A stretch of 7,280 nt of DNA. It comes from a virus. Its lineage: Duplodnaviria; Heunggongvirae; Uroviricota; Caudoviricetes. Positions within the stretch are counted from its first letter, which is position 1; the number at the start of each line of letters is the position of its first letter. Positions 1 to 7,280 of this stretch are shown here, piece after piece. The position numbers and the translations under genes are program-made. The DNA is taken from IMG/VR virus record IMGVR_UViG_2541047771_000008, positions 1-7,280 of that record; one strand, given 5' to 3'. The notes below the pieces were generated by a model that was given only the letters and a program-made list of their open reading frames with translations, was not told where the DNA came from and searched no databases.

Positions 1-1239
1 ATGAGCAGGGCAATTCATAGACTTAGCGACACTCTTTTACGAAAATTAAGCGGATCACCAACCACAAAAAACACCTTTTTTAATGATGGTGGCAACCTTA
101 GCGTAAGGCATTCAACCAATGGCCTGTTAACCTGGTATTTCACTTACAGGGCCGGAACTGGCAGGCAGGTATCACCGGAACGCCTGAGACTGGGCAACTA
201 TCCCGATCTGAGCCTGAAAGCAGCCAGAGAAAAAGCGGCACAGTGTCGCGCCTGGCTGGCGGAGGGGAAAAATCCACGCCATGAGCTTAATCACACAGTG
301 CAGGAAGCGTTAGCACCTGTAACGGTTAAGGACGCGATCACTTACTGGCTTGAGTCATACGCGAAGGAAAAGCGCACTGACCACGAATCACTGAAAAGCC
401 GGATCAATAAGCACATAATCAGCCAGATTGGTGCTATGCCGCTGGATAAATGCGAGTTACGCCACTGGCTGGCCTGTTTTGACCAGCTTGCTAAGCGTAA
501 TCCGGTATCAGCCGGCTTTTTGTTGCAGGTATGCAAGCAGGCGCTTAAGTACTGCCGTAAACGTCGCTACGCCGTCAGTAACGTTCTTGATGATATGGTC
601 GTAGGTGATGTGGGAAAAAAAGCAGAAATAAGCGAGCGAGTGCTAACAAACAAGGAGCTTGGCGAGCTACTCCGCGCACTGGATGAAAAAATTTTCCCGC
701 CGTACTACAGCGCCTTAATTCGCCTTCTGATTGTCTTTGGATGCCGTACCACTGAGCTAAGACGCTCCGAGGTTCAGGAATGGGATTTTAAAGAAATGCT
801 CTGGACTGTGCCGAAAGAACACAGCAAAACGAAGGTAGCAATATTCAGGCCAATACCGGAAGCGATCTTGCCGTTTGTCATGAAGCTGGTGGAGAAGAAC
901 AGGCACACGGGCTTATTGCTTGGAGAACTGAAAGGGCAATCATCCGTAGCAGAGTACGGAAGAACGGCACACAGACGCATTAATCAAGCCCCCTGGTCGT
1001 TGCATGACATCCGGCACACATTTACAACCATGCTGAACGATTTAGGCGTGGATCCGCATATTGTCGAGCAGCTTACCGCCCACCAGATGCCGGGGATGCA
1101 ACGAGTCTATAACCACTCCCGTTATCTTGATGCAAAACGTGATGCTCTTAATCTATGGGTAGACCGTCTCGAGCTTCTCCAGAACAATGATGAAAAAATC
1201 GTTGTTATGACCCCGCGAATTTACCCCCAAAATTCTTGA
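1..1239 (+). CDS. int: site-specific tyrosine integrase, P4-type
   Basis: Complete 412-aa ORF starting at window position 1 with stop TGA at 1237-1239. The C-terminal half carries tyrosine-recombinase signatures (LHDIRHTFTT box, RVYNHSRYLD tyrosine region, upstream conserved Arg region). Length and N-terminal domain fit P4-like integrases. The RBS and att site would lie left of the window and cannot be seen. Confidence 0.92.
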   Translation: MSRAIHRLSDTLLRKLSGSPTTKNTFFNDGGNLSVRHSTNGLLTWYFTYRAGTGRQVSPERLRLGNYPDLSLKAAREKAAQCRAWLAEGKNPRHELNHTVQEALAPVTVKDAITYWLESYAKEKRTDHESLKSRINKHIISQIGAMPLDKCELRHWLACFDQLAKRNPVSAGFLLQVCKQALKYCRKRRYAVSNVLDDMVVGDVGKKAEISERVLTNKELGELLRALDEKIFPPYYSALIRLLIVFGCRTTELRRSEVQEWDFKEMLWTVPKEHSKTKVAIFRPIPEAILPFVMKLVEKNRHTGLLLGELKGQSSVAEYGRTAHRRINQAPWSLHDIRHTFTTMLNDLGVDPHIVEQLTAHQMPGMQRVYNHSRYLDAKRDALNLWVDRLELLQNNDEKIVVMTPRIYPQNS

Positions 1240-1290
1240 CAAATTACGGCTGTTTTTTCTTTAAGAGATTACAGCCGTGAATAAATCGTA

Positions 1291-1320
1291 GAATATCGGA
1301 AAATATCTGCAAATATCTTC
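1291..1320. repeat. three tandem 10-bp phased repeats (GAATATCGGA / AAATATCTGC / AAATATCTTC) in the int-alpA spacer
   Basis: Read directly: the AATATC core recurs at exact 10-bp periodicity, placing the copies on one face of the helix. The spacer 1240-1658 is strongly AT-rich. Function (regulator, IHF or recombination-directionality binding) is inferred only. Confidence 0.4.
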
Positions 1321-1658
1321 GCTTTATATATGTCAACCATCAAAAAATTGGAATGTCTTCTTCTGAACTTTTATTCTCTGTTTCTTGATTGTTCCAACAC
1401 TTGATGGTTTATCTATTTGTTTTTAATGAGATAATTCAAGCGCAATGCCAAGTAACGACATTTTTTGTTGCATCGCTTAAAAACTCGTGACACGATTTTA
1501 AACACTAACGAGCTTCTACGAACCTTAGCGAACAAAGCCTTTAGCAAGGTTGTGTTTTTAATTTAAGAGGTGAAAAAAGAATCTAAGTAATATCCGATCT
1601 CATATATCTACAGCTAAGAGAAAAGTTTATATACGTAATTTTTTATGTAGGTTTTTGT

Positions 1659-1868
1659 ATGCGTGAAATAAATGAAGATCGCGTAATCCGTGAGGATGAA
1701 TGTCGTAAGTTAACTGGAGTGTGTCGCACTACACGCTATGAACTGGAGAAAAAAGGGAATTTCCCGTCACGCCGTAATCTGGGCGGTCGTTCTGTAGGTT
1801 GGCTGCTGTCCGAGGTTATGGAATGGGTTAAAAGCCGGGATCGCATTAATTCAGGCAAGGCAGCGTAA
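1659..1868 (+). CDS. alpA: AlpA/Vis-family helix-turn-helix regulator (prophage transcriptional activator / excision regulator)
   Basis: 69-aa ORF; the segment CRKLTGVCRTTRYELEKKGNFPSRRNLGGRSVGWLLSEVMEWV matches the AlpA family pattern (HTH followed by FP-x-P...G-x-RSV-x-W...EV-x-W). A weak AGG lies 8 nt upstream of ATG 1659. The position just after int is typical for P4-like elements and PICIs. Confidence 0.88.
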   Translation: MREINEDRVIREDECRKLTGVCRTTRYELEKKGNFPSRRNLGGRSVGWLLSEVMEWVKSRDRINSGKAA

Positions 1869-1895
1869 AGGGGAGCATATGACATATAAAACAAA

Positions 1896-1915
1896 GGCGA
1901 CCGGGGGCGGTCGCC
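1896..1915 (-). terminator. intrinsic terminator hairpin for the minus-strand mini-operon (possibly also a weak stop for alpA)
   Basis: Perfect 8-bp GC stem GGCGACCG / CGGTCGCC with loop GGGG. On the minus strand the hairpin is followed by a U-rich tract (complement of 1879-1895 gives UUUGUUUUAUAUGUCAU). On the plus strand no U-tract follows. It lies about 70 nt past the stop of the minus-strand gene ending at 1983. Confidence 0.5.
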
Positions 1916-1982
1916 AATGGATACACACTAAACTTGAACGCATCACCAACAATGCCACATTTGCGGCTGGTGGGCAATGTGA

Positions 1983-2156
1983 TCAGTCAGATTTGGTTCG
2001 TTCCAAGGTTTGCAACGAGAGCTTTTTCCTGTGCTCTTTAAGGAATTTCTCAAGAGCAAAAGCACATGGCGCGAATCTTTCTGATTCATGCTCTATCTTT
2101 CTGCGCCGTCTTTTCCGTGCCGGTGATAATGTTTTGGTCAATTCTTTATCGGTCAT
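1983..2156 (-). CDS. small highly basic protein (57 aa), unknown function
   Basis: Minus-strand ORF; the start is chosen at the second ATG (2156) because AGGA sits 7 nt upstream, whereas the ATG at 2171 has no SD. Translation MTDKELTKTLSPARKRRRRKIEHESERFAPCAFALEKFLKEHRKKLSLQTLERTKSD is K/R/E-rich and predicted helical. It sits second in an operon after the RHH gene. No family recognised by eye. Confidence 0.5.
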   Translation of the reverse strand: MTDKELTKTLSPARKRRRRKIEHESERFAPCAFALEKFLKEHRKKLSLQTLERTKSD

Positions 2157-2213
2157 TGTGTTGTCCTGCATAGCAATGCGCCGTAGTTACTCACACCACG
2201 GCGCTGGTGATGG

Positions 2214-2393
2214 TTACTCCTGCTCTTTGGCCTTGCGGCGCTGGCGGCGTTTGATCTCGCCTTTAACGGCAGTAACTATAAATTGCGCCTTGCTTTCACC
2301 TTCATCTAAATTTTTTTCTAAGTCTGCAACAACATCATGCGGGAATCTGGCATTTAACTGTTGCGACTTATTATTTGTTGAACCTGTTGCCAT
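2214..2393 (-). CDS. ribbon-helix-helix (Arc/Mnt/CopG-like) DNA-binding protein, 59 aa
   Basis: Minus-strand ORF starting at ATG 2393 with SD AGAGAGGA 7 nt upstream; the longer 117-aa version from the ORF track has an implausible N-terminus. The segment QQLNARFPHDVVADLEKNLDEGESKAQFIVTAVKGEI follows the RHH layout and resembles P22 Arc (QFNLRWPREVLDLVRKVAEENGRSVNSEIYQRV, recalled from memory): beta-strand, helix A, G-x-S turn, helix B. It is followed by a basic tail. Confidence 0.72.
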   Translation of the reverse strand: MATGSTNNKSQQLNARFPHDVVADLEKNLDEGESKAQFIVTAVKGEIKRRQRRKAKEQE

Positions 2394-2414
2394 TACTGAA
2401 TCCTCTCTAAGTTG

Positions 2415-2504
2415 GTGCGATTCAGTATACACAAAAAAAATTTCAGAGAAAGGCTTGAAGTGCGATTCACTTGCTGATAGGTTAAAAACGAATGGTGCGA
2501 TGCA
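2415..2504. promoter_or_regulatory. divergent promoter/operator region with three direct repeats GTGCGAT(T/G)CA
   Basis: Repeats at 2415-2424, 2460-2469 and 2495-2504; the third is embedded in the palindrome GGTGCGATGCACC (2494-2506). On the minus strand a near-consensus -10 TATACT (complement of 2424-2429) abuts repeat 1, just upstream of the RHH SD. On the plus strand a candidate TTGAAG (2455-2460), 17-bp spacer, TAGGTT (2478-2483) overlaps repeat 2. The promoter hexamers are weak and this is inferred. Confidence 0.4.
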
Positions 2505-2748
2505 CCAAGCAACAACGCCCCGCAGTGGTGGCACACATGCAGGGCGTCTAACCACCAACGATAGCAACAGTATCGAGGCAGCTATGAGAAATTATACCAG
2601 ACACCCGCAAGGGCGGGACTCGCACAACCTGAATAAAGCGGGTGTAAAAAACCAGTTGATCGCCACTGCAAGCCAGGGCTATGATTTATCCGCACCAGCA
2701 AAATCTGGTGCCGGGATTGGCGTCCTGGAAATGTCAAAGGCGATATAT

Positions 2749-2768
2749 GACGCGCCAGCGTCTTTTTT
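2749..2768 (+). terminator. weak intrinsic terminator-like hairpin inside the long leader
   Basis: GACGC-GCCA-GCGTC (5-bp GC stem, 4-nt loop) followed immediately by TTTTTT (2763-2768). No plus-strand ORF with a start codon ends here. It could mark the 3' end of a small RNA or an attenuation point before the Icd-like operon. The stem is short, so confidence is low. Confidence 0.3.
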
Positions 2769-2934
2769 ATCGTCCGCATTCGCTCACATCAAAGTTATGG
2801 TGGGCTGGGCGGGGGCTTCTTCGGAAGCGCCGGTTCCCTTTGACGCCGGTTACGCCAACCCCGTTCAGTCCACCGCCAGCGAAATTGGCGTTTCCTGCGG
2901 TGGAAATTCTTCACTGTCAAAGGAGGCTGCCAAC

Positions 2935-3123
2935 ATGGCTACTATCCCTACCCTTGTACATTCTCAAACCGCCTTTCTCTGGCGCTTTATCATCTTTGGC
3001 GCGTCAGACCATCAAATCATCCACGTCACCGCCTGGACGGAACGTGAAGCGCGTAACCGCTGCCCGTCCGGTTGTGTTGCTGTATTCGCCGCCCGTATTC
3101 GCCAGGGGGTGTGCCATGCCTGA
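2935..3123 (+). CDS. small Icd-like protein (62 aa; prophage cell-division-inhibitor-like), first gene of the replication operon
   Basis: ATG 2935 is preceded by a perfect SD AGGAGG (2921-2926) at 8-nt spacing. Translation MATIPTLVHSQTAFLWRFIIFGASDHQIIHVTAWTEREARNRCPSGCVAVFAARIRQGVCHA resembles the short Icd-like proteins I recall being annotated beside P4-type integrases (memory only, not searched). It is the in-frame C-terminal end of the 414-aa shadow ORF; an alternative upstream start at 2584 (GAGG SD) cannot be excluded. Confidence 0.68.
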   Translation: MATIPTLVHSQTAFLWRFIIFGASDHQIIHVTAWTEREARNRCPSGCVAVFAARIRQGVCHA

Positions 3124-3436
3124 TATGTCAAATTACCAGTACCTGATTAATCCGCATTTTAACTGTGAGCATGATATTGCTAAAAAGGTTTATTCCGCTG
3201 CGGATGGGGCTACTGACAATATATCAATGGGTATTGCGTCAATTGGTAGCCTGATGTGGCATGCGTCAGAAAATGAGGACTATGACGAAAAGGCCATGCG
3301 CATTGATATGGGTAATATCGGTTTGTTACTGGCAATGCTTGGGCAGTTTGATATTTCGTTACGGTGCACCATTGAAAATGCCACAGATGCATTAAATGCC
3401 ATAAAGAAAGCGAATACTGATTCAAATCGGGGATAA
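3116..3436 (+). CDS. hypothetical protein (106 aa)
   Basis: ATG 3116 overlaps the upstream stop (ATGCCTGA, 3116-3123), indicating translational coupling. SD AGGGGG (3104-3109) precedes it. The N-terminal 145 codons of the annotated 251-aa ORF are Pro/Arg-rich junk, so the start is trimmed to 3116. The retained part has balanced composition. No family recognised. Confidence 0.68.
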   Translation: MPDMSNYQYLINPHFNCEHDIAKKVYSAADGATDNISMGIASIGSLMWHASENEDYDEKAMRIDMGNIGLLLAMLGQFDISLRCTIENATDALNAIKKANTDSNRG

Positions 3437-3442
3437 ATAATC

Positions 3443-3742
3443 ATGAGAACATATATATCTGGCTTGACTGCCAGCGGTTATGCACACCCCAAAATTATCC
3501 CCGGCGCTATTTATCTGGATAAGAACGGTAACAGAGTAACGGTAAAAGAACTGATGTTTGACCGTGTGTATTTTATTCGTGATGGCTATTCATTTCATAG
3601 TTCGCTGAACGTGGAGATCTTTATTTGCAGATTCCGGCGGGAAATCCCGCCTTCCAGAAATAACCATGTGTCATGTATGGATGTTGATAAAAAACTACAG
3701 GAGCTGAAAAACATGATTGCCGCGTGGAGAGAGCAGAAATGA
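3443..3742 (+). CDS. hypothetical protein (99 aa), coupled to the helicase/primase gene
   Basis: ATG 3443 lies 6 nt after the upstream stop, with GGGGA upstream. Its stop TGA (3740-3742) overlaps the next start (ATGA at 3739-3742). It occupies the position held by small early genes such as epsilon in P4; that is positional analogy only, with no sequence recognition. Confidence 0.68.
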   Translation: MRTYISGLTASGYAHPKIIPGAIYLDKNGNRVTVKELMFDRVYFIRDGYSFHSSLNVEIFICRFRREIPPSRNNHVSCMDVDKKLQELKNMIAAWREQK

Positions 3743-5556
3743 AAAAAGCGCCAAATTTAAAACACCAGCCGCGTGACAAAATGACGGAAGTCATCATTTT
3801 TGCGGGTAGTAATGCGTGGGCACATGCGAAGCAGTGGCAGGAACAGGACGGGCGACTGGCTGGCGATAACGTGCCTCCTGTCTGGCTTGGAGAGCAACAA
3901 CTTGCCGAACTGGACAACCTGCAAATCGTACCGGACGGACGCTATCGCGTGCGTCTCTATCAGGCGGGGTTATTGCGTCCGGGGCTTGTTAATACCATCG
4001 GGCAGAAACTGGCAGCGGCAGGTGTCAGGGATGCTGATTATTACCCTGAAGGAATGCACAGCCAGAAACGGGAGAACTGGCGCGAATATCTGGAACGTGA
4101 ACGGGCAGAGCTGGCGGAAAAGAAAAAGGTAGTTGAACTGCCTGTAAAGAAAAAAGAGCGGGTAAAAGACGATAACGCTTCATCACTGGCGCTTAACCAG
4201 ATGGGAGCAAGTCAACGCGGCGAAGTTCTCCTGGCACATTATGGCGGTGAACTGGCGATTCATGCTGACTCTGACACTGTTCACCATTACAACGGCGTTG
4301 TATGGGAGCCAGTACAGGATAAAGAATTACAGCGAGCTATGGCACAGATTTTCATTGATGCGGAGATCAGCTATTCGCAGAACGCCATTAAATCGGCGGT
4401 CGATACCATGAAGTTAAGTTTGCCTGTTATGGGGAATACAGCCCGTAACCTGATTGGATTCAGTAACGGGGTATTTGATACCAGAACAGGTAATTTTCGG
4501 GAGCATAACAAAAACGACTGGTTGTTAATTGCCAGTGAATTACCTTTCAGCCCACCAGCAGAGGGGGAAACGCTGGCAACACATGCGCCGAATTTCTGGA
4601 AGTGGTTACGCCGTTCGGTGGCTGAGAATGACTGCAAGGCGGATCGCGTACTGGCTGCATTATTCATGGTGCTGGCGAACAGGTACGACTGGCAGTTATT
4701 CATTGAGGTAACAGGTCCAGGAGGAAGTGGTAAAAGCGTGATGGCGGAGATTTGCACCATGCTGGCGGGTAAGGCCAACACAGTATCGGCAAGCATGAAG
4801 GCGCTGGAAGATGCAAGGGAACGCGCGTTAGTGGTTGGCTTTTCGCTGATTATCATGCCGGATATGACCCGCTACGCTGGTGATGGGGCAGGAATTAAGG
4901 CCATTACAGGCGGTGACAAGGTGGCAATTGACCCGAAACACAAAGCCCCCTACTCAACGCGTATTCCGGCAGTAGTGCTGGCGGTTAACAATAACGCCAT
5001 GTCATTCAGTGACCGCAGCGGGGGGATCTCACGTCGTCGGGTGATATTCAATTTTTCGGAAGTTGTACCGGAGGACGAACGCGATCCGATGCTGGCGGAA
5101 AAAATAGAAGGTGAGCTGGCGGTAGTGATTCGCCATCTGCTTACACGGTTTGCTGACCAGGACGAAGCCAGACGCCTGTTATATGAGCAGCAGAAATCTG
5201 AAGAAGCACTGGCGATAAAGCGAGAGGGGGATTCGCTGGTGGACTTCTGCGGCTATCTCATGGCGTCGGTAATGTGTGATGGCCTGTTAGTGGGTAATGC
5301 TGAAATTGTGCCATTCAGCCCACGCAGGTATCTCTATCATGCCTATCTGGCTTATATGAGGGCACATGGGTTTGGTAAACCTGTAACACTGACGCGCTTC
5401 GGTAAAGATATGCCGGGGGCAATGGCGGAATATGGCAGGGAGTATATGAAACGGAAAACGAAGCACGGTTTGCGTTCAAACGTGACACTGACGGAGGAAT
5501 CAGAAGACTGGATGCCATCATGTGTATCGGTCACTAATGACGACAGCAAAAATTAA
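3739..5556 (+). CDS. replication protein: P4 alpha-like primase C-terminal (D5_N-like) plus SF3 helicase
   Basis: 605 aa from ATG 3739 (SD GGAGAGAG upstream; the ORF track's GTG at 3724 is a less likely start). Walker A is VTGPGGSGKS, a Walker B-like stretch is FSLIIMPDM, and motif C is VLAVNNNAMSFSDRSGG. The block upstream of the P-loop (NLIGFSNGVFDTRTG) is typical of phage/plasmid primase C-terminal regions. The matching iteron array lies immediately downstream. Confidence 0.9.
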   Translation: MKKAPNLKHQPRDKMTEVIIFAGSNAWAHAKQWQEQDGRLAGDNVPPVWLGEQQLAELDNLQIVPDGRYRVRLYQAGLLRPGLVNTIGQKLAAAGVRDADYYPEGMHSQKRENWREYLERERAELAEKKKVVELPVKKKERVKDDNASSLALNQMGASQRGEVLLAHYGGELAIHADSDTVHHYNGVVWEPVQDKELQRAMAQIFIDAEISYSQNAIKSAVDTMKLSLPVMGNTARNLIGFSNGVFDTRTGNFREHNKNDWLLIASELPFSPPAEGETLATHAPNFWKWLRRSVAENDCKADRVLAALFMVLANRYDWQLFIEVTGPGGSGKSVMAEICTMLAGKANTVSASMKALEDARERALVVGFSLIIMPDMTRYAGDGAGIKAITGGDKVAIDPKHKAPYSTRIPAVVLAVNNNAMSFSDRSGGISRRRVIFNFSEVVPEDERDPMLAEKIEGELAVVIRHLLTRFADQDEARRLLYEQQKSEEALAIKREGDSLVDFCGYLMASVMCDGLLVGNAEIVPFSPRRYLYHAYLAYMRAHGFGKPVTLTRFGKDMPGAMAEYGREYMKRKTKHGLRSNVTLTEESEDWMPSCVSVTNDDSKN

Positions 5557-5567
5557 ACTTATGGAAT

Positions 5568-5800
5568 AACTGTTCACCACTGTTCACCCTGTCATAAATA
5601 TCTTTTATATCAGTATATTATAGGGTGAACAGTTATTTATGAACTGTTCACCAAACTATTCACTGTTCACCTTTTTGATTGTTTATTGAGCTTCAAGGGT
5701 GAACAGTGGTGAACAGTTGGTGAATAGTTTTTGTGAAACTGTTCACCCCTTAACATTATGAATTAAAAGATAAAATATCAAAAGGTGAACAGGTGAAGGG
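5568..5800. repeat. replication origin (P4 ori/crr-type): iteron array of TGTTCACC octamers with AT-rich spacers
   Basis: Perfect TGTTCACC at 5571-5578, 5581-5588, 5645-5652, 5664-5671 and 5740-5747. Reverse-complement GGTGAACA at 5624-5631, 5698-5705, 5708-5715 and 5784-5791. Degenerate copies at 5719-5726 and 5792-5799. AT-rich stretches (for example 5591-5623) lie between copies. The octamer matches the type I iteron bound by P4 alpha protein as I recall it. Confidence 0.82.
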
Positions 5801-5843
5801 TTAAAACGCAAAAATTTTAATTTACTGCTGTGAGATAAAGCCT

Positions 5844-6089
5844 ATGACAGCGAAGCACACAAAAAAATCACAATCGCACGCCCTTGATTTGACGGAACAC
5901 TGGTTAAGGGTGTCGATAAAAATCATCGACCGCAACGCCGGGGAAGGATATGCGAAAGCACATCCAGAACTGATTAGCGCATTCATGACAACGGCAGCTG
6001 CAAACTTTGCCACGCTGACAGAACGGGAGATTGCCGAAGCGGAACAGGTGACAACCATCAACGTTAAAACCGGAGAGCAGACAGCATGA
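5844..6089 (+). CDS. hypothetical small protein (81 aa)
   Basis: The ORF has a weak SD (GAGAT). Its stop overlaps the SSB start (ATGA at 6086-6089), which supports it being real and co-translated with ssb. Minus-strand ORFs over the same region are Cys/Trp-rich and look like antisense artefacts. No family recognised. Confidence 0.5.
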   Translation: MTAKHTKKSQSHALDLTEHWLRVSIKIIDRNAGEGYAKAHPELISAFMTTAAANFATLTEREIAEAEQVTTINVKTGEQTA

Positions 6090-6508
6090 CAGCACAGATA
6101 GCGGCTTACGGGCGGCTGGTGGCTGACCCGCAGTTAAAGACCACCAGCAAGGGTACACAAATGACGATGGCTAGTATGGCAGTCCCCCTTCCGTGCAGCC
6201 AGGCAGATGACGGAACGGCGACGATGTGGTTATCCGTCCTGGCGTTTGGCAGACAGGCCGACGCACTGGCAAAACACCACAAAGGCGAACTGGTGAGCGT
6301 GGCGGGTAACATGCAGGTAAGCCAGTGGACAGGCCAGAACGGCGAAACGCGGCAGGGCTGGCAGGTTATCGCAGACAGCGTGATCAGTGCGCGAACAGCG
6401 CGACCGGGCGGCAAAAAAGGCCAGCAGGGGCAGGCCACTGACGCACTGAACAGGGCAAAACAACAGTCGGGGAATGATGATCCGTACGGCGATAATATAC
6501 CGTTTTAA
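6086..6508 (+). CDS. ssb: single-stranded DNA-binding protein (SSB family, OB fold with acidic C-terminal tail)
   Basis: 140 aa with SD GGAGAG 8 nt upstream. The OB-fold core aligns by eye to E. coli SSB (GRLVADPQL...WLSVLAFGRQADALAKHHKGELVSVAGNMQVSQWTGQNGETRQGWQVIADSV versus VGNLGQDPEV...[51 protein letters not shown]). A Gly/Gln-rich linker follows, and the C-terminus ...DDPYGDNIPF matches the SSB tip motif (E. coli ends DDDIPF). Confidence 0.85.
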   Translation: MTAQIAAYGRLVADPQLKTTSKGTQMTMASMAVPLPCSQADDGTATMWLSVLAFGRQADALAKHHKGELVSVAGNMQVSQWTGQNGETRQGWQVIADSVISARTARPGGKKGQQGQATDALNRAKQQSGNDDPYGDNIPF

Positions 6509-6525
6509 ATTCTGCAAACAAAAAG

Positions 6526-6554
6526 ATGCCGGAAAAAAATAGATTTTCCGGCAT
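6526..6554. terminator. perfect 11-bp hairpin, probable transcription terminator between ssb and the capsid gene
   Basis: ATGCCGGAAAA-AAATAGA-TTTTCCGGCAT at 6526-6554. A clean U-tract follows only in the minus orientation (complement of 6511-6525 gives CUUUUUGUUUG). On the plus strand the hairpin is preceded by an A-tract with no U-tract after it. It may be bidirectional or protect ssb from leftward read-through. Confidence 0.45.
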
Positions 6555-6725
6555 GCTACATAAATCCCGACCAAAGGAAGTAAATACATTAACACGAATT
6601 ATCAGCACTGAAGTTGTCACGGCATATTTTATACAACATTGCACTTGGTTGCATGTATTCGCATAGCAGACATCGGTAATAGAATATATTCACAATTATT
6701 TGTAATGAATGTAAAGAGGATGAGT

Positions 6726-7280
6726 ATGGTTGACTTATATTCGCCTACACAGCTTGTGCAGGTGGCTAATGCTGAAGATGTGCAAAAAAAATTAAATGCG
6801 TTGTTTACCAGTTTGTTTTTCACTCGCTCGGTAATGTTTGAATCGAGAGACATTATTCTTGATACGATCGACGATCCAAATATCCCGATCGCGGCGTTTT
6901 GCTCTCCTATGGTGGGCAGTAAAGTTTCACGAGATGAGGGATACGAATCAAAAACAATTCGCCCTGGCTATATGAAACCGAAAAGCAGCATTGATCCAAA
7001 TAAGTTAGCTGTGCGCCCTGCTGGTGTATCACCTGAGCAATACAATGCTTTTGGAGCGCGTAATATTAAAGTTAAACAGGCGATTGTAAATCAGGCTAAA
7101 GCTATTCGTGCACGTATTGAATGGCTTGCCGTTCAGGCAATCACAACGGGGAAAAATATCATTGAGGGCGATGGTATTGAACGTTATGAGCTGGACTGGA
7201 ATATTAAACCACAAAATATCATCACTCAGTCTGGCGGTGCTGAGTGGTCAGGTAAGGATAAAGAAGCTTTTGATCCAAAT
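6726..7280 (+). CDS. major capsid protein, lambda gpE family (5' portion; gene continues beyond the window)
   Basis: Open frame from ATG 6726 to the window end (185 codons, no stop), with SD AAGAGGA 5 nt upstream; an in-frame ATG at 6720 would give MSMVD..., mirroring the lambda E N-terminus MSMY. Recalled lambda gpE blocks match: IRPGYMKPK versus FTPGYVKPK, and NIITQSGGAEWSGKDKEAFDP versus NITQSGGTEWSKRDKSTYDP. Not in the ORF track because it has no stop in the window. Confidence 0.82.
   Translation, partial: MVDLYSPTQLVQVANAEDVQKKLNALFTSLFFTRSVMFESRDIILDTIDDPNIPIAAFCSPMVGSKVSRDEGYESKTIRPGYMKPKSSIDPNKLAVRPAGVSPEQYNAFGARNIKVKQAIVNQAKAIRARIEWLAVQAITTGKNIIEGDGIERYELDWNIKPQNIITQSGGAEWSGKDKEAFDPN

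Follow-up and report, generated by a model that had tools for sequence, protein, structure and literature searches.

A probable early operon related to those of P4 and P1/P7, with three small genes ahead of the primase-helicase gene, in a satellite of Escherichia coli

The DNA analyzed here, in the following called the window, is a stretch of 7,280 nucleotides (nt) from an IMG/VR virus record (IMGVR_UViG_2541047771_000008, positions 1 to 7,280), in which three small open reading frames (ORFs), the Icd-like ORF, ORF106 and ORF99, precede a gene for a primase-helicase. Our reading, to which we assign a probability of roughly 0.65, is that an approximately 10-kb Escherichia coli satellite has these ORFs as the promoter-proximal part of its early (replication) operon, and that this operon is homologous to the left operon of P4 and the immI operon of P1 and P7. 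The operon would run from an isrK/seqA-like RNA and a C4/CI-type RNA through the target sites a2 and b2, the Icd-like (Kil-type) leader, ORF106, ORF99 and the primase-helicase gene to an iteron origin. In the resident island, C4 would block translation of the leader, and the untranslated transcript would be terminated or stay silent, leaving ORF106, ORF99 and the primase off, by analogy with P1/P7, P4 and the isrK locus of Gifsy-1. After induction, ribosomes would traverse the leader, re-initiate at ORF106 via ATGCCTGA and go on into ORF99 and the primase; induction itself might come about by transcription and translation from alpA through a long frame resembling P4 eta, or by relief from C4. 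The four genes are:

2935-3123, plus strand: Icd-like ORF, ATG 2935-2937, TGA 3121-3123, 62 amino acids (aa), basic, isoelectric point (pI) 9.3
3116-3436, plus strand: ORF106, ATG 3116-3118, TAA 3434-3436, acidic, pI 4.6
3443-3742, plus strand: ORF99, ATG at 3443, TGA 3740-3742, basic, pI 9.6
3739-5556, plus strand: primase-helicase gene, ATG 3739-3741, with D5_N, DUF5906 and Pox_D5 domains and a P4-family primase C-terminal region

The Icd-like ORF and ORF106 overlap by ATGCCTGA (3116-3123), ORF106 and ORF99 are separated by a 6-nt gap (ATAATC, 3437-3442), and ORF99 overlaps the primase gene by ATGA (3739-3742). An earlier interpretation made from the letters alone, the sequence-only reading, had placed the three ORFs, both overlaps and the gap correctly and had linked the small genes to a helicase/primase, which profile matches assign to the D5/P4 type. 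All four start codons are preceded at a distance of 6-12 nt by a purine-rich Shine-Dalgarno sequence (AAGGAGG, AGGGGG, GGGGA and GGAGAG, respectively), and a terminator scan of the plus strand between 2935 and 5556 revealed no terminator-like site. The arrangement points to co-transcription and probable translational coupling, no more; of the stoichiometric co-expression proposed earlier, the coupling thus stands, whereas a stoichiometric output does not follow. The 8-nt overlap between leader and ORF106 (ATGNNTGA) is kept in all 80 loci with an ORF106 relative, which comprise 77 IMG/VR loci, a near-identical locus in an E. coli genome (L001), the window itself and a Superficieibacter genome (42% identity). 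In the locus searches, the scan of a genome collection gave one locus, and two scans with a single protein gave none. In a distant ORF106 subgroup (six loci, around 27% identical to ORF106 in the alignment), the overlap reads ATGNNTAA in all four loci inspected. The pair of ORF106 and ORF99 was detected in 474 of 5426 complete E. coli genomes, with both genes together in 471, and in all 40 sampled E. coli rows the two genes lie between the Icd-like gene and the replicase gene. Pairwise ratios of nonsynonymous to synonymous substitution rates (dN/dS) are 0.36 for ORF106, 0.32 for ORF99 and 0.075 for the primase, that is, both small proteins evolve 4-5 times faster than the primase, and their variable sites are concentrated at third codon positions. 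From these ratios and the enrichment at third positions, ORF106 and ORF99 are genuine coding genes under purifying selection. The reading frame of ORF106 stays open for 145 codons upstream of its ATG (window 2681-3436), through the C4 region, which accounts for longer versions of the protein in public databases; these gene calls of 166-171 aa or 324 aa (P0001, P0002, P0057) are probably over-extended.

Upstream of the leader lies an antisense-RNA switch, whose elements are:

2656-2685, plus strand: candidate sigma-70-like promoter for the isrK/C4 transcript, TTGATC-18-TATGAT, 9/12, a consensus match only
2679-2731, plus strand: c4-a1b1 element, Rfam 43.8 bits
2692-2768, plus strand: isrK (P4 seqA-like) RNA, Rfam 75.1 bits (gathering score 50)
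2749-2768, plus strand: isrK terminator, hairpin 2749-2762 plus T-run
2793-2880, plus strand: C4/CI-type antisense RNA, Rfam RF01695, 82 bits (gathering score 45), full length, model positions 1-87
2837-2844, plus strand: C4 loop b', CCTTTGAC
2852-2858, plus strand: C4 a', ACGCCAA
2717-2723 and 2733-2740, plus strand: upstream targets a1 (TTGGCGT) and b1 (GTCAAAGG), exact complements of C4 a' and b'
2885-2891 and 2916-2923, plus strand: downstream targets a2 (TTGGCGT) and b2 (GTCAAAGG), exact complements of C4 a' and b'

The target b2 (2916-2923) overlaps the Shine-Dalgarno sequence AAGGAGG (2920-2926) of the Icd-like ORF, and a hairpin predicted within 2885-2932 sequesters this Shine-Dalgarno sequence (-24.6 kcal/mol, z -2.4; 2 of 200 shuffled sequences fold as well). 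Among the C4-bearing loci, five b'/b2 pairs occur, GTCAAAGG, CAATCAAGG, TAACGAAGA, CACTACAGGA and TCATCTGG, in each of which the two partners are complementary, and the b' copy is located at C4 offset 43-45, 75-80 nt upstream of its target, constantly across the five pair types. This b'/b2 variation is compensatory covariation in trans, and it is the strongest computational evidence for a functional switch, which would define immunity types. By sequence and by analogy, the isrK/C4 switch (2679-2880) would be the main determinant of small-gene expression. Two tandem isrK/C4/Icd-like units, each with its own b'/b2 specificity, are found before ORF106 in five loci (L057, e.g. 2720-3605; L060, L075, L078 and L079). 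The Superficieibacter locus (L002 5640-5790) carries inverted GTGTAAGACAC/GTGTCTTACAC repeats and a GC-rich hairpin between a divergent YlcI-like gene and the Icd-like leader, as well as a sub-threshold symR-like match on the minus strand (35.9 bits vs 61), and the make-up of this island suggests control of a protein-operator type.

The homology is closest to the left operon of P4 (seqA-CI RNA-seqC, eta/kil, epsilon, orf151, orf106, alpha). In P4, the ORF just upstream of epsilon (the old 'cI' ORF, equivalent to the 3' part of eta with kil) combines a Phage_ASH region with an Icd-like domain behind it (NF033153, 73.9 bits); the P4 CI RNA matches the Rfam model of C4, the P4 seqA region matches isrK, and the leader starts 55 nt after C4 ends, in P4 and in the window alike. 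Overlaps of 8 nt join the P4 leader to epsilon (8168-8175) and epsilon to ORF151. Since the P4 leader has the same Phage_ASH and Icd-like make-up and the same 8-nt overlap, ORF106, as the first gene after the kil/Icd-like ORF and overlapping it, lies exactly at the position of epsilon, a likeness of position only and not of epsilon-family membership; the analogy to P4 drawn in the sequence-only reading is therefore well founded. Both elements further share C4-family and isrK/seqA-like RNAs, a string of small genes leading to a P4-family primase-helicase, and alpA/vis upstream. The small genes themselves, however, show no relationship: ORF106 is distinct from epsilon (PF25738), and ORF99 is neither P4 ORF151 nor P4 ORF106/DUF5375. 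The island of the window also differs from P4 in that it lacks psu, sid and delta, has a protease/capsid fusion gene and a DUF1441 gene, and carries its origin directly downstream of the primase gene, as islands of the phage-inducible chromosomal island (PICI) type do. As judged from these correspondences, the window region is a homologue of the P4 immunity/left-operon junction. According to the summary given in PMC10111431, CI-dependent termination in P4 is opposed when the nested eta/kil frames are translated.

A second counterpart is the immI operon of P1 and P7 (c4-icd-ant1/2), which shares with the window a C4 a'/b' pair facing both a1/b1 and a2/b2, a b2 target over the ribosome-binding site of icd, and an Icd-family leader that overlaps the next gene. 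The operon of P1 contains c4, icd and ant1/2, and the C4 antisense RNA is needed for full repression of ant (PMC8198154); the c4-icd-ant geometry of P1/P7, as far as it is cited there from Citron and Schuster (1990), matches that of the window. The two systems differ in what follows the leader, an antirepressor in P1/P7 and ORF106, the DUF4222 gene ORF99 and the primase gene here, and in the length of the overlap, which is 4 nt there and 8 nt here. The third counterpart is the isrK-orf45-anrP region of the Salmonella prophage Gifsy-1, which has an isrK RNA with a terminator, a small leader ORF and a leader ribosome-binding site masked by RNA structure. There, anrP depends for its translation on that of orf45, via an AUGA overlap, and the long isrK transcript is translationally inactive (PMC4825925), which the hairpin over the Shine-Dalgarno sequence in the window resembles. 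In Gifsy-1, however, the downstream gene encodes an antirepressor that switches on antQ.

The first ORF had been called Icd-like from the sequence alone, and it indeed matches the NCBIfam model NF033153 with 59.2 bits (cut-off 25), compared with 49.8 bits for Icd of a P1-like phage and 73.9 bits for the Kil region of P4. It aligns with both of these proteins, and its identity to Icd of the P1-like phage is 46% or 35%, depending on the alignment. Icd of P1 inhibits host cell division when expressed. A tblastn search of 50,697 phage records with the Icd-like ORF returned one 16.5-kb 'induced prophage' record as the sole match, and ORF106 and ORF99 had no match in the same records. By analogy, and with lower confidence, we regard the Icd-like ORF mainly as a regulatory leader, which may possibly also act as a division inhibitor. 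It forms the end of a longer frame:

1879-3123, plus strand: 414-codon open frame, starting 10 nt after alpA and ending at the Icd-like stop codon, with Phage_ASH at aa 269-362 and the Icd-like domain at aa 366-409

This frame stays open through the isrK/C4 region, though it is antisense to a YlcI-like gene (2205-2384, minus strand); comparable long frames are present in many related loci, and PGAP labels part of the frame as an incomplete 'ash family protein'. Islands with ORF106 differ in the body of the Icd-like protein, which is 45-100% identical and falls into at least four variants, all of which end in ARIRQGVCHA, whereas ORF106 is 91-100% identical across the islands that carry these variants. 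A variable leader followed by a nearly constant ORF106 indicates a recombination breakpoint inside the leader, and by this sequence pattern the switch and the small genes are separable modules.

ORF106 matches phrog_15327, a family with no assigned function, over its full length (1e-71) and has no match in Pfam or NCBIfam. The statement that neither the 106-aa nor the 99-aa protein resembles anything recognizable therefore has to be corrected for ORF99, which belongs to DUF4222 (61.7 bits) and is related to RgdR, and holds for ORF106 insofar as its sole match is to this family. The searches placed neither protein in a housekeeping replication-accessory family. No families in PADLOC-DB matched the Icd-like ORF, ORF106, ORF99 or the distal gene orf81 at E up to 0.1, and Pfam and PHROG scans of ORF106 and ORF99 detected no antirepressor domain (Ant, Bro-N, KilA-N, Rha). 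Neither ORF106 nor ORF99 matches the epsilon family in Pfam (PF25738), for which P4 epsilon itself scores 170 bits; the hhalign probability for the ORF106 family against P4 epsilon is 0.1%, and profile comparison revealed no similarity to P4 ORF151 or P4 ORF106. A relationship to the ORFs that occupy the same slot in Sp7-like islands was not accepted either (best match ECs1579, E 0.033, probability 1.5%). An exhaustive profile search of 1.84 billion proteins yielded 21 representatives of the ORF106 family, mostly of about 100 aa and none of them annotated, which share the motif G-x-S-x-I-G-x-L-M-(F/W)-x-A ... (E/D)-x-Y ... D-M-x-x-(I/L)-G. In the AlphaFold2 model, helices span residues 13-51 and 58-105 (predicted local distance difference test, pLDDT, 62), so that ORF106 might, with low confidence, form a two-helix hairpin.

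The genes for ORF106 relatives always belong to a chain of overlapping small ORFs that runs from a leader to a replicase gene; the leader may or may not be Icd-like, and the next gene encodes either a DUF4222 protein or an unrelated protein of 112-122 aa. Four replicase types are found with them (D5/P4-type, DUF927-type, AAA_25 and Zn-ribbon/Toprim/DUF927), and Sp7-like islands keep DUF4222 and the N-terminal domain of the primase but have other small ORFs in place of ORF106. ORF106 is thus neither tied to one replicase nor required by the DUF4222-primase pair, and for this reason a trans-acting early factor is preferred over a replicase subunit. With lower confidence, ORF106 may be a small acidic helical protein-binding factor that would act in trans on a target of the helper or the host. 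Since ORF106 resembles neither epsilon nor antirepressor or defence families, the roles as derepressor, anti-defence factor or division inhibitor put forward from the sequence alone are, for it as for ORF99, hypotheses of position.

ORF99 belongs to the DUF4222 family (PF13973, residues 16-67, 61.7 bits with a threshold of 27; phrog_285, 1e-21) and aligns with RgdR (ECs1581) without gaps from residue 1 to 99 of both proteins (30% identity, E 2e-12). RgdR is a basic protein of 99 aa, which turns on the LEE1 promoter and type III secretion, acts as a repressor of motility and shows non-specific binding to DNA (PMC3378721; PMC10877973), and some support for the idea of a host-manipulating factor comes, for the DUF4222/RgdR family, from this published role. 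In the Sakai genome, ECs1581 is located in the prophage-like element Sp7, directly upstream of the primase gene ECs1582 and overlapping it by ATGA. Sp7 contains int, alpA, an Icd-like gene, primase, a gene for single-stranded DNA-binding protein (SSB), pchE and a capsid/terminase set. RgdR (O-island 51/Sp7 of E. coli O157:H7) and ORF99 therefore agree in length, DUF4222 domain, basic character and ATGA overlap with a satellite primase gene, and their islands share int, alpA, the Icd-like gene, the SSB gene and capsid genes; however, Sp7 has three other small ORFs between the Icd-like gene and RgdR, where the window has ORF106. The two proteins differ at residues 20-22, where ORF99 has P20-G21-A22 in place of the RGD motif reported to be important for activation of type III secretion; many family members lack R20. 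The N-terminal domain of the primase (about 140 aa, window 3739-4158, phrog_2850) is 70% identical to that of the Sp7 primase and the remainder is unrelated. This domain behaves as a separate module, with 70-95% identity among replicases that have unrelated catalytic parts (471, 582, 605 and 710 aa).

An alignment of 30 diverse DUF4222 proteins of 99 aa revealed an invariant N-terminal motif S-G-(L/F)-T-A-S-G (ORF99 residues 1-20, window 3443-3500), which may be a docking peptide. In the AlphaFold model of ORF99, this stretch is disordered, residues 21-66 form an SH3/Tudor-like barrel of four strands (pLDDT about 87) and residues 78-98 form a helix at the C-terminus; a sequence search of the PDB gave nothing below E 1. 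DUF4222 genes of 72-73 aa or 99 aa are found directly upstream of several replicase types in other satellites, and in two loci (L070 and L079) the DUF4222 type switches along with the primase type, with ORF106 unchanged. The rep gene and ori of the model PICI EcCICFT073 are enough to replicate a plasmid (PMC6092414), so that an upstream small gene is not essential for initiation there and the DUF4222 protein is unlikely to be an essential component of the initiator. With lower confidence, ORF99 may be a small basic Tudor/SH3-like modulator of transcription or of the replicase rather than an essential replication factor. In satellites from gut metagenomes that carry the ORF106 family (L165-L211, e.g. 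L167 2021-2996 and L184 2010-2991), a conserved protein of about 269 aa is encoded farther upstream and is followed by a protein of 57-60 aa that, by eye, resembles the DUF4222 core, so that these elements apparently have two DUF4222-like genes each.

Several points weigh against an RNA-controlled and translationally coupled operon of the P4 and P1/P7 kind. Sequestration of the ribosome-binding site at the ORF106 start is unsupported (z +1.9), and ORF106 may also initiate independently of the leader. A C4 or isrK match at gathering score is absent from 9 of the 13 sampled ORF106-carrying islands, and the Superficieibacter locus has no C4 or isrK match either; the proposal that C4 control is general to ORF106 operons was rejected, as most ORF106 islands have no such match, and the RNA switch is thus a property of the immunity module of this particular island and not of ORF106 and ORF99. 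Both the coupling and the control by C4 are moreover what we infer from the sequence and from homologous systems. With respect to the proteins, the model of ORF106 is of low confidence, and a Foldseek search with it against the PDB gave nothing with E<1; ORF99 lacks the RGD motif of RgdR (PGA at 20-22), and its Tudor-like matches are generic (Z <=6.4; Foldseek E >=0.03).

The role of the small proteins could also be explained in other ways. It is possible, if rather unlikely, that ORF99 and perhaps ORF106 regulate or assist replication by acting on the primase-helicase or on the iteron origin, analogous to Cnr of P4, which controls copy number through the alpha protein and which we take to be P4 ORF106 (DUF5375). 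ORF99 and its relatives always lie directly before a replicase gene and overlap it, and the change of DUF4222 type with primase type next to a constant ORF106 in L070 and L079 would fit such a role, as would the basic character of ORF99, the DNA binding of RgdR and the iteron origin downstream of the primase gene. In P4, cnr lies between epsilon and alpha; a gene family including cnr occupies this interval in 90% of P4-like elements, and a 75-aa protein with no assigned function is found there in 61% (PMC8628076). Furthermore, gut-metagenome loci carry DUF4222 genes of 72-73 aa before P4-alpha-like primases. However, comparison of the DUF4222 and ORF106-family profiles with P4 ORF106/DUF5375 gives hhalign probabilities of <=0.2%, type-A DUF4222 occurs with replicases of differing catalytic parts, some replicases with the N-terminal domain are preceded by the unrelated protein of 112-122 aa, and rep plus ori suffice for replication of EcCICFT073. 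For ORF106, its four different replicase partners and its absence from Sp7-like islands with DUF4222 and the primase N-terminal domain speak against a replication factor. An unlikely alternative is that ORF99 is chiefly a host-directed regulator, a case of lysogenic conversion, which acts on motility, adhesion and secretion genes and possibly docks onto RNA polymerase via its Tudor-like barrel. Both RgdR and its orthologue in CFT073 activate type III secretion and repress motility, RgdR doing so from its native locus (PMC3378721), and in E. coli and Shigella the DUF4222 family forms over 500 clusters at the 90% identity level, most of them exactly 99 aa long. The top matches of the fold search with ORF99 include RNA-polymerase-binding Tudor/KOW domains (the C-terminal domain of UvrD/PcrA, CarD/CdnL, Mfd and NusG/RfaH), but the fold is generic and the scores are modest. 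In addition, ORF99 is 30% identical to RgdR, with PGA replacing RGD, and its location in an RNA-repressed early operon argues against expression in an uninduced lysogen.

We consider it quite unlikely that ORF106 is a functional analogue of P4 epsilon or P1 Ant and thus a derepressor. It does occupy the epsilon position, first after a Kil/Icd-like leader with the same 8-nt overlap; the gene after icd in P1-like phages, at the P1 ant position, is annotated as a Roi-type DNA-binding protein, and Stx and SfV phages have antirepressor-annotated genes at the C4 region. Scans of neighbouring small ORFs in three ORF106-family loci gave no PF25738 match, the protein is acidic and predicted to be helical like many small protein inhibitors, and its dN/dS is 4-5 times that of the primase. 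Nevertheless, ORF106 has no sequence or profile similarity to epsilon or antirepressor families and no informative fold match, in its gut-metagenome relatives another ORF of 59 aa comes first and the ORF106 relative second, and with islands of the PICI type it is normally the helper that induces the island, not the other way round (PMC6092414). Moreover, its identity of 91-100% across islands with different integrases and late modules is unlike that of an arms-race factor tuned to different helpers. Highly improbable, finally, is the idea that ORF106 is the antidote to a toxic basic Icd-like/Kil peptide: an acidic protein (pI 4.6) after a basic one (pI 9.3) with an 8-nt overlap is typical of toxin-antitoxin-like pairs, and the junction of leader and ORF106 is invariant in all 80 loci, but P4, P1 and Sp7 have Icd-like genes without ORF106, distant ORF106 relatives follow leaders that are not Icd-like, and the body of the Icd-like protein varies (45-100% identity) where ORF106 is more than 91% identical.

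The regulatory design itself is already known from P1, P4 and Gifsy-1, RgdR has been published, and the presence of C4 and isrK in Gram-negative PICIs has been noted before (PMC10111431). What is added here is a point-by-point homology between the leader region and P4 eta/kil, with the P4 ORF before epsilon being Icd-like as well, a native genomic context for the RgdR family, whose members are primase-coupled satellite genes, and the definition of the ORF106 family with its conserved coupling. The island shares with P4 a whole RNA-based immunity and leader module, beyond integrase, AlpA and primase, which helps to link PICI-like and P4-like satellites. To our knowledge, RgdR has been known solely as a virulence regulator of enterohaemorrhagic E. 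coli; its placement in an operon expected to be silent until induction makes one ask when lysogens express RgdR-type proteins, and why. As a compact and highly conserved protein at the position of the P4 helper derepressor, ORF106 is a reasonable, unproven candidate for satellite-helper or satellite-host interaction. It is tempting to speculate further that ORF106 represents a new family of small acidic satellite effectors, which sits in the slot of epsilon in P2-independent satellites and binds a regulator of the helper or host as a derepressor or anti-defence factor, and that the RgdR/DUF4222 proteins are Tudor-like proteins that dock onto RNA polymerase; taken together, these two proposals are improbable, though docking onto RNA polymerase would, if true, account for RgdR's pleiotropic action on genes of virulence and motility.

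The remaining features of the window are:

1659-1868, plus strand: alpA, AlpA-family regulator/excisionase gene (PF05930, 59.5 bits), at the position of P4 vis/orf88
5565-5802, strand not applicable: intergenic iteron array directly downstream of the primase gene, with GGTGAACAG(T) repeated about 11 times, in both orientations
5844-6508, plus strand: orf81 (phrog_1231) and SSB gene, distal genes of the replication zone

From its composition and location, the iteron array (5565-5802) is probably the origin of replication of the island; origins of Gram-negative PICIs lie downstream of the replication gene (PMC6092414), and these islands are divided into an integration zone, a variable 'Bro' zone, a replication zone and a late zone (PMC10111431). 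The element shows the hallmarks of this type, namely int, alpA, a primase gene followed by an iteron origin, a size of about 10-15 kb and unidirectional transcription. In common with Gram-negative PICIs of about 10 kb, it also has a variable zone with C4/isrK RNAs, an SSB gene and late genes, but its variable zone is devoid of a Bro, KilA or Ant-domain protein. It falls outside the definition of P4-like satellites (int, psu, delta, sid and alpA as well as epsilon and alpha, with at most two missing; PMC8628076): in the near-identical E. coli island, int, alpA and the primase-helicase gene are annotated, and psu, sid, delta and epsilon are not. As far as gene content tells, the window region is a PICI-like satellite with the size and layout of a Gram-negative PICI, and about 9% of complete E. 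coli genomes carry an island of this type. Positions 2601-3800 of the window are 99.5% identical to avian pathogenic E. coli O1:K1:H7 strain E16002 and other strains. In E16002, the island of about 10 kb extends from an integrase gene beside cspD/yljB to just before clpS, with the order int, alpA, two small opposite-strand genes (one of them YlcI/YnfO-like), Icd-like gene, ORF106 and ORF99, followed by primase, a small ORF, SSB, a fusion of ClpP-like prohead protease and major capsid protein, DUF1441 and one further ORF. In the same strain (L001 25105-29200), a type I-F CRISPR array with cas1f/cas3f is located about 3.6 kb from the island, beyond clpS-clpA.

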